From the IMG/VR virus record IMGVR_UViG_2531839195_000011: a stretch of 11,114 nt of DNA; one strand, 5' to 3'. Source of the stretch: a virus (lineage: Duplodnaviria > Heunggongvirae > Uroviricota > Caudoviricetes). Below the pieces are notes generated by a model. It saw only the letters and a program-made list of their open reading frames with translations. It made no database searches and had not been told where the DNA came from. Position 1 is the stretch's first letter; each line of letters starts with the position of its first letter. Positions 8,439-9,706 of the stretch are shown here, in pieces. Position numbers and translations under genes: made by a program.

Positions 8439-9611
8439 TCACGATGTGCGAATAAAAAGCCCGGGCATTGCGCCAGAGACATGAGCATCCGGCACCCCGG
8501 ACAGGGCGCAATATGACCCCGGTAATGAATGCTCTGAACATCCCGTAATGAAAAATTGTGGGGATGCTATATACGTTCCGGTGGGAGTACTGGGCACTGA
8601 AATCCCCACCGGTCCCAGTCGTGAGCCTCTGTATGACTGCCCCCTGACAAGTCTGATGACTTTATCACCGTCAGCTTCTCCCTGGTACGCAGCAATAATC
8701 AGCCCGCCAATGTCAGGGTCTCCCCATCTGTTGCGGACAGAGCTCGCCACGATTCTGTAAATAATATCTTCTGTGGTTATATTTATTTTCACCCAGTCAG
8801 TCAGTCTGGATATGGGCCAGTAGCGGTAGCGGGTGTGATAAATGGGGCCGTTAATGCCGTAAAAAGTAAGGGATTTGGCTCTGTACCGCGGTTCTGTTGT
8901 CTCAGGGCGTGCATCAGTCCACCGGATGCTGAGCACCCCTTCAAACCGTGTGTCGGGTATGATGATGCCGTAGGGGCCAGCAACGGAATATTCACCTGGC
9001 AGCGCATTCCTTACCCAGGCCAGGAAATCACTCTTAGTGTCAAAACGGATAACATCTTCAGGCAGAAAAGCACACCCAAAGCCGAATGCGCCGGGTATCG
9101 CCAGACGGCCTTTTGTCCGGTCGTAAATGTCGCTCTGTGCTTCCATCGTGGCCGCACTTTTCAGCCCCAGATTATCCCGGGACTTCTGTTGTGCCTTTTC
9201 GCCTGCTGCTGCGATTTCAGACAGATGGTTAGCCGTTTTCAGAGTGCCGGTCAGCGCAGCATCAATGTCATTTTTGGCCTGCTCTGCTGCGCGGGCATAA
9301 CCTGCGGCTGCCGCCACATCCTGCGCCGTCTGCTGTGCGTTTCCGGCTGCGGCCCCGGCGCTCTGCTGCGCCTGCGCCACCATTTCCTCAAAGCGTTTGA
9401 CGACATCCGGTTTCAGGTCGCCCTCATCAGGAGCAATCAGAAAGTCATTCAGCGTGCCGGGCTTTGAGTCCTCATATACAGCAATGTCGCCAACGTTGTA
9501 CTCGTTGCGCCAGTCCTGTTTCAGATACACACCATATTTTCCAGTCCGCGCATGGAAACAGTATTCACCATCGTTTCCTGTCATCACATCAGCAACAGTG
9601 TTCATCACCAC
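8439..9611 (-). CDS. Phage side tail-fiber protein (lambda Stf-like N-terminal region, Ala-rich linker, unrecognised C-terminal domain); main body
   Basis: 390-aa ORF with ...GDIAVYEDSKPGTLNDFL... and an A/Q-rich segment, resembling the lambda Stf N-terminal region as recalled. The true N-terminus appears to lie upstream in another frame (next feature). Confidence 0.65.
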   Translation of the reverse strand: MVMNTVADVMTGNDGEYCFHARTGKYGVYLKQDWRNEYNVGDIAVYEDSKPGTLNDFLIAPDEGDLKPDVVKRFEEMVAQAQQSAGAAAGNAQQTAQDVAAAAGYARAAEQAKNDIDAALTGTLKTANHLSEIAAAGEKAQQKSRDNLGLKSAATMEAQSDIYDRTKGRLAIPGAFGFGCAFLPEDVIRFDTKSDFLAWVRNALPGEYSVAGPYGIIIPDTRFEGVLSIRWTDARPETTEPRYRAKSLTFYGINGPIYHTRYRYWPISRLTDWVKINITTEDIIYRIVASSVRNRWGDPDIGGLIIAAYQGEADGDKVIRLVRGQSYRGSRLGPVGISVPSTPTGTYIASPQFFITGCSEHSLPGSYCALSGVPDAHVSGAMPGLFIRTS

Positions 9612-9706
9612 TTCCGGGGGTTTACCCGGGATTTCAGAATAATATGGTATCCGGACATGGGGATACCTGCGCCATCAGTCAGCGCACCTGATATCACTAC
9701 AGACAT
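9605..9706 (-). pseudogene. Out-of-frame N-terminal segment of the same tail-fiber gene (33 codons), separated from the body by a frame break at a G5/C5 tract
   Basis: ATG at 9706 gives MSVVISGALTDGAGIPMSGYHIILKSRVNPRKW*, resembling the Stf N-terminus (MAVKISGVLKDGTGKP...). The frame change maps to + strand ggggg at 9616-9620; one more G/C would join the segment to the 390-aa body. Confidence 0.55.

Follow-up and report, generated by a model that had tools for sequence, protein, structure and literature searches.

The window analysed here, a stretch of 11,114 nucleotides corresponding to the Shigella flexneri draft contig AKMZ01000054.1 (assembly GCA_000268025.1, 2012-era), contains a lambda-Stf-like tail-fibre gene of 422 aa that is split in two by the lack of one C in a run of six on the coding strand, at codons 29-31. 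This contraction of C6 to C5 is probably, with a good deal of doubt, a consensus artefact of AKMZ01000054.1 and not a change in the bacterial DNA. The artefact is favoured because the private indels of the window are all homopolymer contractions and because of the paralogue structure of the locus; it is favoured also because the two other contractions alter sequences that are expected to be conserved (the start of sitA and the A6C motif of an IS1 copy), and because C5 is rare and not clade-defining. According to the mechanism that we propose, short reads from the sit-adjacent copy of the gene and from its ipaH-adjacent paralogue would pile up at the tract, where a gapped consensus of the two copies would yield C5; read mixing or a homopolymer miscall would be the cause of the missing base.

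Layout of the split fibre gene and of its locus

The disrupted gene extends from position 8439 to position 9706 on the minus strand and would encode 422 aa with a C6 tract, as indicated by the intact alleles present at the same S. flexneri locus, by the domain PF08400 and by full-length phage homologues. The minus-strand ATG at 9706 opens the sequence MSVVISGALTDGAGIPMSGYHIILKSRVNPRKW*, an N-terminal fragment of 33 codons (9605-9706) that ends with the TGA stop at 9607-9605. Residues 1-30 of this fragment are those of the intact protein and its last three codons (R-K-W) are frameshifted. The frame of the body (8439-9611, minus strand) is open down to the stop at 8439, either from the GTG at 9611 (390 codons) or from the ATG at 9605 (388 aa). 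The ORF layout confirms the original prediction that the 33 codons and the 390-aa body are in different frames, and the two frames do meet at the ggggg of the plus strand (9616-9620), which corresponds to C5 in coding orientation. In the intact S. flexneri allele the tract counts six bases and reads AAC-CCC-CCG (N29-P30-P31). The ATG at 9605 corresponds to M35 of the intact protein and is overlapped by the stop of the short ORF (TGATG); a truncated product of 388 aa could arise by re-initiation at this codon.

In the intact 422-aa homologue, the Pfam domain PF08400 ("Prophage tail fibre N-terminal") is matched at profile positions 1-131 of 134 (E = 1e-70), and in the 388-aa body of the window at profile positions 35-131 (E = 5e-50). 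The 33-codon ORF contributes the part of PF08400 that precedes the body, in the form of residues 1-30 of the intact S. flexneri protein. Because the PF08400 matches run across both ORFs in the intact homologue, the two are one Stf-like tail-fibre gene whose pieces are not juxtaposed by chance, and the proposal that an Stf-like N-terminus and its body form one split gene is borne out by this intact homologue. The break had been placed between the conserved N-terminus and the body; it is instead localized inside the PF08400 domain (profile positions 1-34 on one side and 35-131 on the other), at codons 29-31 of a domain of ~131 residues. The presence of this N-terminal domain places the protein in the Stf-like PF08400 fibre family. 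The tail fibre of phiP27 aligns over 100% of the intact protein with 40% identity, the lambdoid "side tail fiber" proteins match residues 1-110 with 47% identity, and the stf genes of Rac-SA53 and of lambdoid phages align to the fibre protein at the N-terminus. Downstream, the place where a tail-fibre chaperone or assembly gene would be found next to an Stf-like fibre is occupied by a gene of 207 aa with the domain DUF4376 (7865-8488, minus strand; PF14301, E = 1e-14), which shares 50 nt with the 3' end of the fibre gene. This arrangement is common to all homologous loci.

Starting from the fibre gene, the gene order is the DUF4376 gene and then sitDCBA on the opposite strand. The genes sitABCD (4239-7664, plus strand), identified from the annotation of homologous E. 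coli loci and by Pfam, encode an iron/manganese ABC transporter and constitute the cargo of the island; a search with sitA gave mainly E. coli loci from which this fibre gene is missing. Upstream of the fibre gene, a tail-fibre assembly gene tfa (Caudo_TAP, PF02413; 9730-10274, minus strand) is split by a 1-bp deletion at 10137/10138. It is preceded by an ORF of 172 aa (10277-10795, minus strand) that represents the C-terminal remnant of an upstream tail-fibre gene and abuts an IS element at the contig end. The remaining content of the window consists of IS1, of IS3-family fragments and of integrase fragments, and no head, tail-tube, baseplate or lysis genes were found within the window. Judging from this gene content, the fibre gene sits in an IS-riddled, degraded prophage remnant that carries sitABCD and is unable to make a virion. 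E. coli relatives such as CFSAN029787, where a complete myovirus-type baseplate module is still present upstream of the same fibre cassette, show what the S. flexneri stump decayed from. The locus is the known "PAI sit" island, which is described as rearranged and unstable in the review PMC7545054, where Fisher et al. 2009 is summarised. Two tandem cassettes of fibre and chaperone genes in the same orientation are observed both in the window (7865-10795, minus strand) and in locus L004 (8691-12337), in the order fibre and Caudo_TAP, then PF08400 fibre and DUF4376.

The deletion in tfa concerns 1 bp outside homopolymers (GTGTC-CTGG versus GTGTCGCTGG) and yields two ORFs of 50 aa and 123 aa. Since the 123-aa fragment is found exactly on 461 contigs, complete genomes included, this deletion is a real one that has become fixed at the sit locus of S. 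flexneri. In the ipaH-adjacent paralogue, tfa is still intact (181 aa).

State of the tract in relatives and in the paralogous copy

The survey of the tract covers 66 instances (S. flexneri, S. sonnei, E. coli and prophage regions of IMG/VR). Of these, 22 have CACCCCG and 19 have CACCTCA, which makes 41 of the 66 with no homopolymer at the site, and 16 have CCCCCCG (C6). The sequence CCCCCG (C5) is found in three rows that represent two assemblies, namely the window (entered twice, once as its own record L007) and CP044155.1. The sites CACCCG (frameshifted, L026) and CACCCGG (in frame, strain 8401) were each detected once, and four instances display other sequences. No +1 allele (C7) was found in the 66 instances. 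Because most relatives have no homopolymer at the site, the C6 run is of recent origin and came about by substitution, first of TCA to CCG and then of ACC to CCC.

Comparison with intact homologues, as the original prediction had suggested, reveals that 15 other S. flexneri assemblies carry C6 and an intact 422-aa gene at the same sit-adjacent locus; the expectation that G6 would give a single intact ORF is thereby verified. One more G than in the window is present at the tract in 10/10 complete S. flexneri genomes compared. In the five closest E. coli loci, displaying 97-98.7% identity, the site reads CACCCC (N-T-P) and the gene is intact. These five loci had suggested that the window lost the interrupting A of CACCCC; this idea was dropped, the nearest S. 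flexneri alleles carrying C6.

At the protein level, the exact intact S. flexneri protein is found on 489 contigs, the product of CP044155.1 on 1 contig and the 388-aa product of the window on 5 contigs, this last count overstating C5, as among three of these contigs that were read two are artefacts and only the window shows C5. In locus L006 (UDSZ01000114.1, ~2985), the DUF4376 gene is joined through N to ...NCCCCGGAAGTGGTGATG, an assembly junction within the repeat that mimics a truncated 388-aa gene. Locus L008 begins at a contig end, so its 388-aa product is not evidence of C5. The 390-aa form starting at the GTG is absent from the sequence collection searched. Finally, locus L098, which carries the exact DUF4376 protein of the window, ends at the position corresponding to window 8606, before the tract, and has A7 at sitA.

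The only other assembly with C5, CP044155.1 (strain AR-0424, serotype Y), is an independent long-read complete genome. It has no distinguishing SNPs in common with the window, and the two SNPs private to it, at 400 nt from the tract, correspond to alleles of a paralogue. C5 is thus rare and does not define a clade. Two further variants of the site come from other strains: in L026 (CP026810.1, ~4480), the sequence CACCC (-1 from CACCCC) is frameshifted and leaves 33 codons, and in L031 (CP000266.1, strain 8401, ~4480) the sequence CACCCGGG is in frame (N-T-R). Within these 8 nt, paralogues and strains that are otherwise near-identical vary to an unusual degree.

The genomes of S. flexneri carry a second, ipaH-adjacent copy of the fibre cassette; both paralogues are contained, for example, in CP026788.1 (919716-940984 and 4254460-4266978). 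At this paralogous locus, a resolvase/invertase gene is found downstream, beyond ipaH (L100, 11434-11874; L005, 14835-14930). Over ~800 nt, from window 10015 to 9214, the tract is the one point of difference between the sit copy, with C (C6), and the otherwise identical paralogue, with A (CACCCC). From this identity, reads shorter than ~400 nt would not be assignable to one copy at the tract, and the short-read consensus is expected to be unreliable there because the tract is the only paralogue difference over ~800 nt. The frameshift site is thus located in sequence that short reads do not allow to attribute to a single copy. Moreover, AAACCCCCGG is exactly what results when AAAC-CCCCCGG and AAACACCCC-GG are merged into a gapped consensus.

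The resemblance of the window to the paralogue extends to positions 10616, 10299 and 10066, and to the part beyond 10650. The states at 10616 and 10299 are present in E. coli sit-locus relatives too and may therefore be ancestral. The contig end (10651-11114) matches the ipaH-adjacent locus, with an IS junction and a 172-aa ORF identical to the paralogue copy; other S. flexneri genomes have, at their sit locus, a fibre remnant cut short at 10650 by an IS. This end could reflect a lineage devoid of that IS insertion, a gene conversion or a chimeric contig end. The paralogue-like sites are compatible with a mixing of paralogues in the assembly. Since the other sites that discriminate the paralogues between 10250 and 7800 are all sit-like in the window, the two copies were not collapsed wholesale.

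Private indels of the record and origin of the split

The window was compared from 726 to 10650 with 10 complete S. flexneri genomes (99.8% identity). Exactly three indels are private to the window: T6 to T4 at 2838, A7 to A6 at 4232 and G6 to G5 at 9620. All three are contractions of homopolymers of at least 6 nt, and no private indel lies outside homopolymers over this interval in the comparison with the 10 genomes. The contractions affect 3 of the 19 runs of at least 6 nt versus 0 of the 38 five-base runs. Private substitutions number ~9 in 11 kb. The indels specific to this record are thus confined to homopolymers and repeats, conserved genes included.

The second of these contractions concerns the A-run of sitA (4227-4232, plus strand; region 4216-4241), which is A6 in the window and A7 in 10/10 complete S. 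flexneri genomes and in E. coli. With A6, the sitA start MHSIKKVTMLL... becomes MHSIKK*, and only the internal ATG at 4239 is left (296 aa). In all relatives sitA is called at 304 aa, and the A7 start gives a normal signal-peptide n-region. The A6 run of sitA is probably a homopolymer miscall; if it were real, the signal peptide of SitA would be truncated. The contraction at 2838 affects the IS1 copy at 2394-3089 (minus strand), where A4C (T-run 2835-2838, plus strand) replaces the A6C programmed -1 frameshift motif. The change of T6 to T4 fuses insA-insB' into one ORF of 231 aa, which would be a constitutive transposase. The normal A6C motif is present at this IS1 copy in all 10 relatives; the exact fused protein of 231 aa has one further record, WP_094106049.1, from a complete S. 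flexneri genome. Singleton homopolymer indels exist in other assemblies as well (L094, L095), which suggests that homopolymer noise is common in the data set.

The main competing explanation is a genuine slippage, private to the strain, that removed one C and occurred independently in AR-0424, as part of the neutral decay of a relic prophage. We hold this to be a serious possibility, less probable than the artefact. The gene is a single intact ORF in close relatives and is broken by a small indel, as a frameshift pseudogene would be, and the intact alleles of these relatives designate C6 as the ancestral state. Slippage in a run of 6 nt is the commonest real indel mutation, and the fibre gene is under no selection. 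The locus itself is a stump with IS elements, a partial fibre gene, a fixed tfa deletion and no virion genes. C5 is observed in two independent assemblies, and it is a point against the artefact that one of them is an independent long-read complete genome. Two features of the IS1 contraction also speak against the artefact: T6 to T4 is a difference of 2 bases, which is unusual for a consensus error, and the fused protein occurs exactly in one complete S. flexneri genome.

Real frameshifts moreover adjoin the tract gene or are found in its family, which counts both in favour of a pseudogene and against an artefact. Besides the tfa deletion (461 contigs) and the CACCC allele of L026, a repeat (GACT)3 is located inside the fibre gene at window 8795-8806 (coding strand GACTGACTGACT), ~800 nt downstream of the tract. 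In 13 of 38 homologous loci there are only two GACT units and the frame is shifted; where the start of the ORF is readable in these two-unit loci, the ORF stops at 304 aa. Among them are one copy at the sit locus (L028), ipaH-adjacent paralogues and prophage regions from IMG/VR. The GACT repeat constitutes a second frameshift site in the fibre gene, either recurrent or inherited. A further lesion, which also fits a decaying gene, is the truncation by IS66 in S. sonnei: in the complete genomes of this species (L009-L018, ~2975-2990), an IS66-family end (..GCACGCTTAC) removes the N-terminus of the fibre. This cut lies within a few nt of the frameshift site of the window and results in the same product length of 388 aa. 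We considered the 388-aa form of S. sonnei as the same frameshift and rejected it, the IS66 end abutting GGTAAACACCCC.

Against a genuine slippage, the two C5 records have no SNPs in common, so that two independent events would be needed. The two remaining private indels, in sitA and in IS1, likewise shorten homopolymers, and they are unlikely as real mutations in 11 kb with only ~9 private substitutions. In addition, short reads cannot resolve the site. Altogether, the indirect evidence leans against the presence of this indel in the DNA of the organism. Among the three causes originally envisaged for the split, the homopolymer assembly error is favoured on account of the private indels and of the paralogue structure, pseudogenisation is the less probable alternative, and the phase switch is not supported.

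Under the favoured reading as a consensus artefact, this case illustrates how a frameshift may seem to arise from one base by which the paralogues differ within a long repeat. The frameshifts of this record at homopolymers of at least 6 nt should not be annotated as pseudogenes or switches without read support; taken at face value, the frameshift at the sitA start would wrongly suggest a defective virulence-associated transporter. Concerning the fibre gene, no phenotype is expected whether it is intact or broken, and the break has no biological consequence because the prophage stump cannot build a particle.

Switching, recoding and comparison with known systems

A phase-variable contingency switch, where slippage of the G/C run would turn a fibre-like protein on and off within a population, is very improbable. 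Such a switch would fit a homopolymer that lies in a coding region and decides the frame by its length, the two tract lengths (6 and 5) found among S. flexneri assemblies and the unusual variability of the surrounding 8 nt among paralogues. In homopolymer contingency loci, however, the runs typically comprise ~8 bases or more, and to our knowledge no homopolymer contingency locus has been established in E. coli or Shigella. The tract counts only 6 nt at most and is not a long repeat conserved among homologues: 19 loci have CACCTCA and 22 have CACCCCG, and the run arose recently by substitution. Its length polymorphism is neither frequent nor two-way, with C6 in 15 assemblies, C5 in 2 and no C7 in the 66 instances; the variation is -1 only, and the intact protein is found on 489 contigs versus two assemblies with a confirmed C5. 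No phage is left for the gene to serve, and the tfa gene upstream is broken. The on/off switch of the original prediction is therefore not retained: the tract is short, stable and not conserved, the gene belongs to a stump next to a frameshifted tfa, and the break does not coincide with a domain boundary. We give just as little credence to a related possibility, according to which the C6 run (created by ACC to CCC, T30P) would be a genuine slippage hotspot that, together with (GACT)3, switches off a retained and possibly domesticated fibre-like protein in a minority of cells or lineages, C5 in two unrelated strains being real recurrences.

Programmed recoding, either by tRNA-Pro slipping by -1 on a CCC that precedes the rare codon CGG or by a slip of the RNA polymerase on C5, can be practically discounted: in the frame of the window CCC does precede CGG, a rare Arg codon, and shifting by -1 would bring back the frame of the body, but the homologues are simply in frame, the out-of-frame arrangement is conserved in no relative, there is no canonical X XXY YYZ heptamer and C5 falls far short of the length at which transcriptional slippage would be appreciable. 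In Shigella, such slippage is known from some loci, for example mxiE, on runs of ~9 A/T. All homologues whose N-terminus can be read are either in frame or broken here in a different way. Because the relatives are simply in frame, programmed frameshifting is ruled out as a conserved mechanism.

The lesion is nothing new in kind. Poly-G contingency loci of Neisseria, Haemophilus and Campylobacter are alike in that a G/C run within a coding region sets the frame. The tract studied here differs from them by its 6 nt, its recent origin, its stability across hundreds of assemblies and its position in a functionless gene. Another parallel is lambda Stf: it belongs to the same N-terminal family (PF08400), and in lambda PaPa, too, a single-base frameshift splits the stf fibre gene into two ORFs, be the lineage a laboratory or a natural one. 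This frameshift, reported by Hendrix and Duda in 1992, is said to lie mid-gene in a functional phage and to abolish the side fibres. In the window, by contrast, codons 29-31 are affected, only a stump of the prophage is left and the DNA itself may lack the break altogether. The homopolymer and collapsed-repeat errors of draft and long-read assemblies are alike in the contraction of runs of at least 6 nt, in the presence of a repeat that short reads cannot resolve and in the singleton indels found elsewhere; one of the three changes observed here is of 2 bases, unlike typical consensus errors, and the likeness is deduced from assemblies. Finally, the decay of Shigella prophages, as in "PAI sit", associates phage remnants and IS flanks with several independent disruptions, to which this break would add another rare lesion private to a strain, and the locus described here shows no difference in kind from it.
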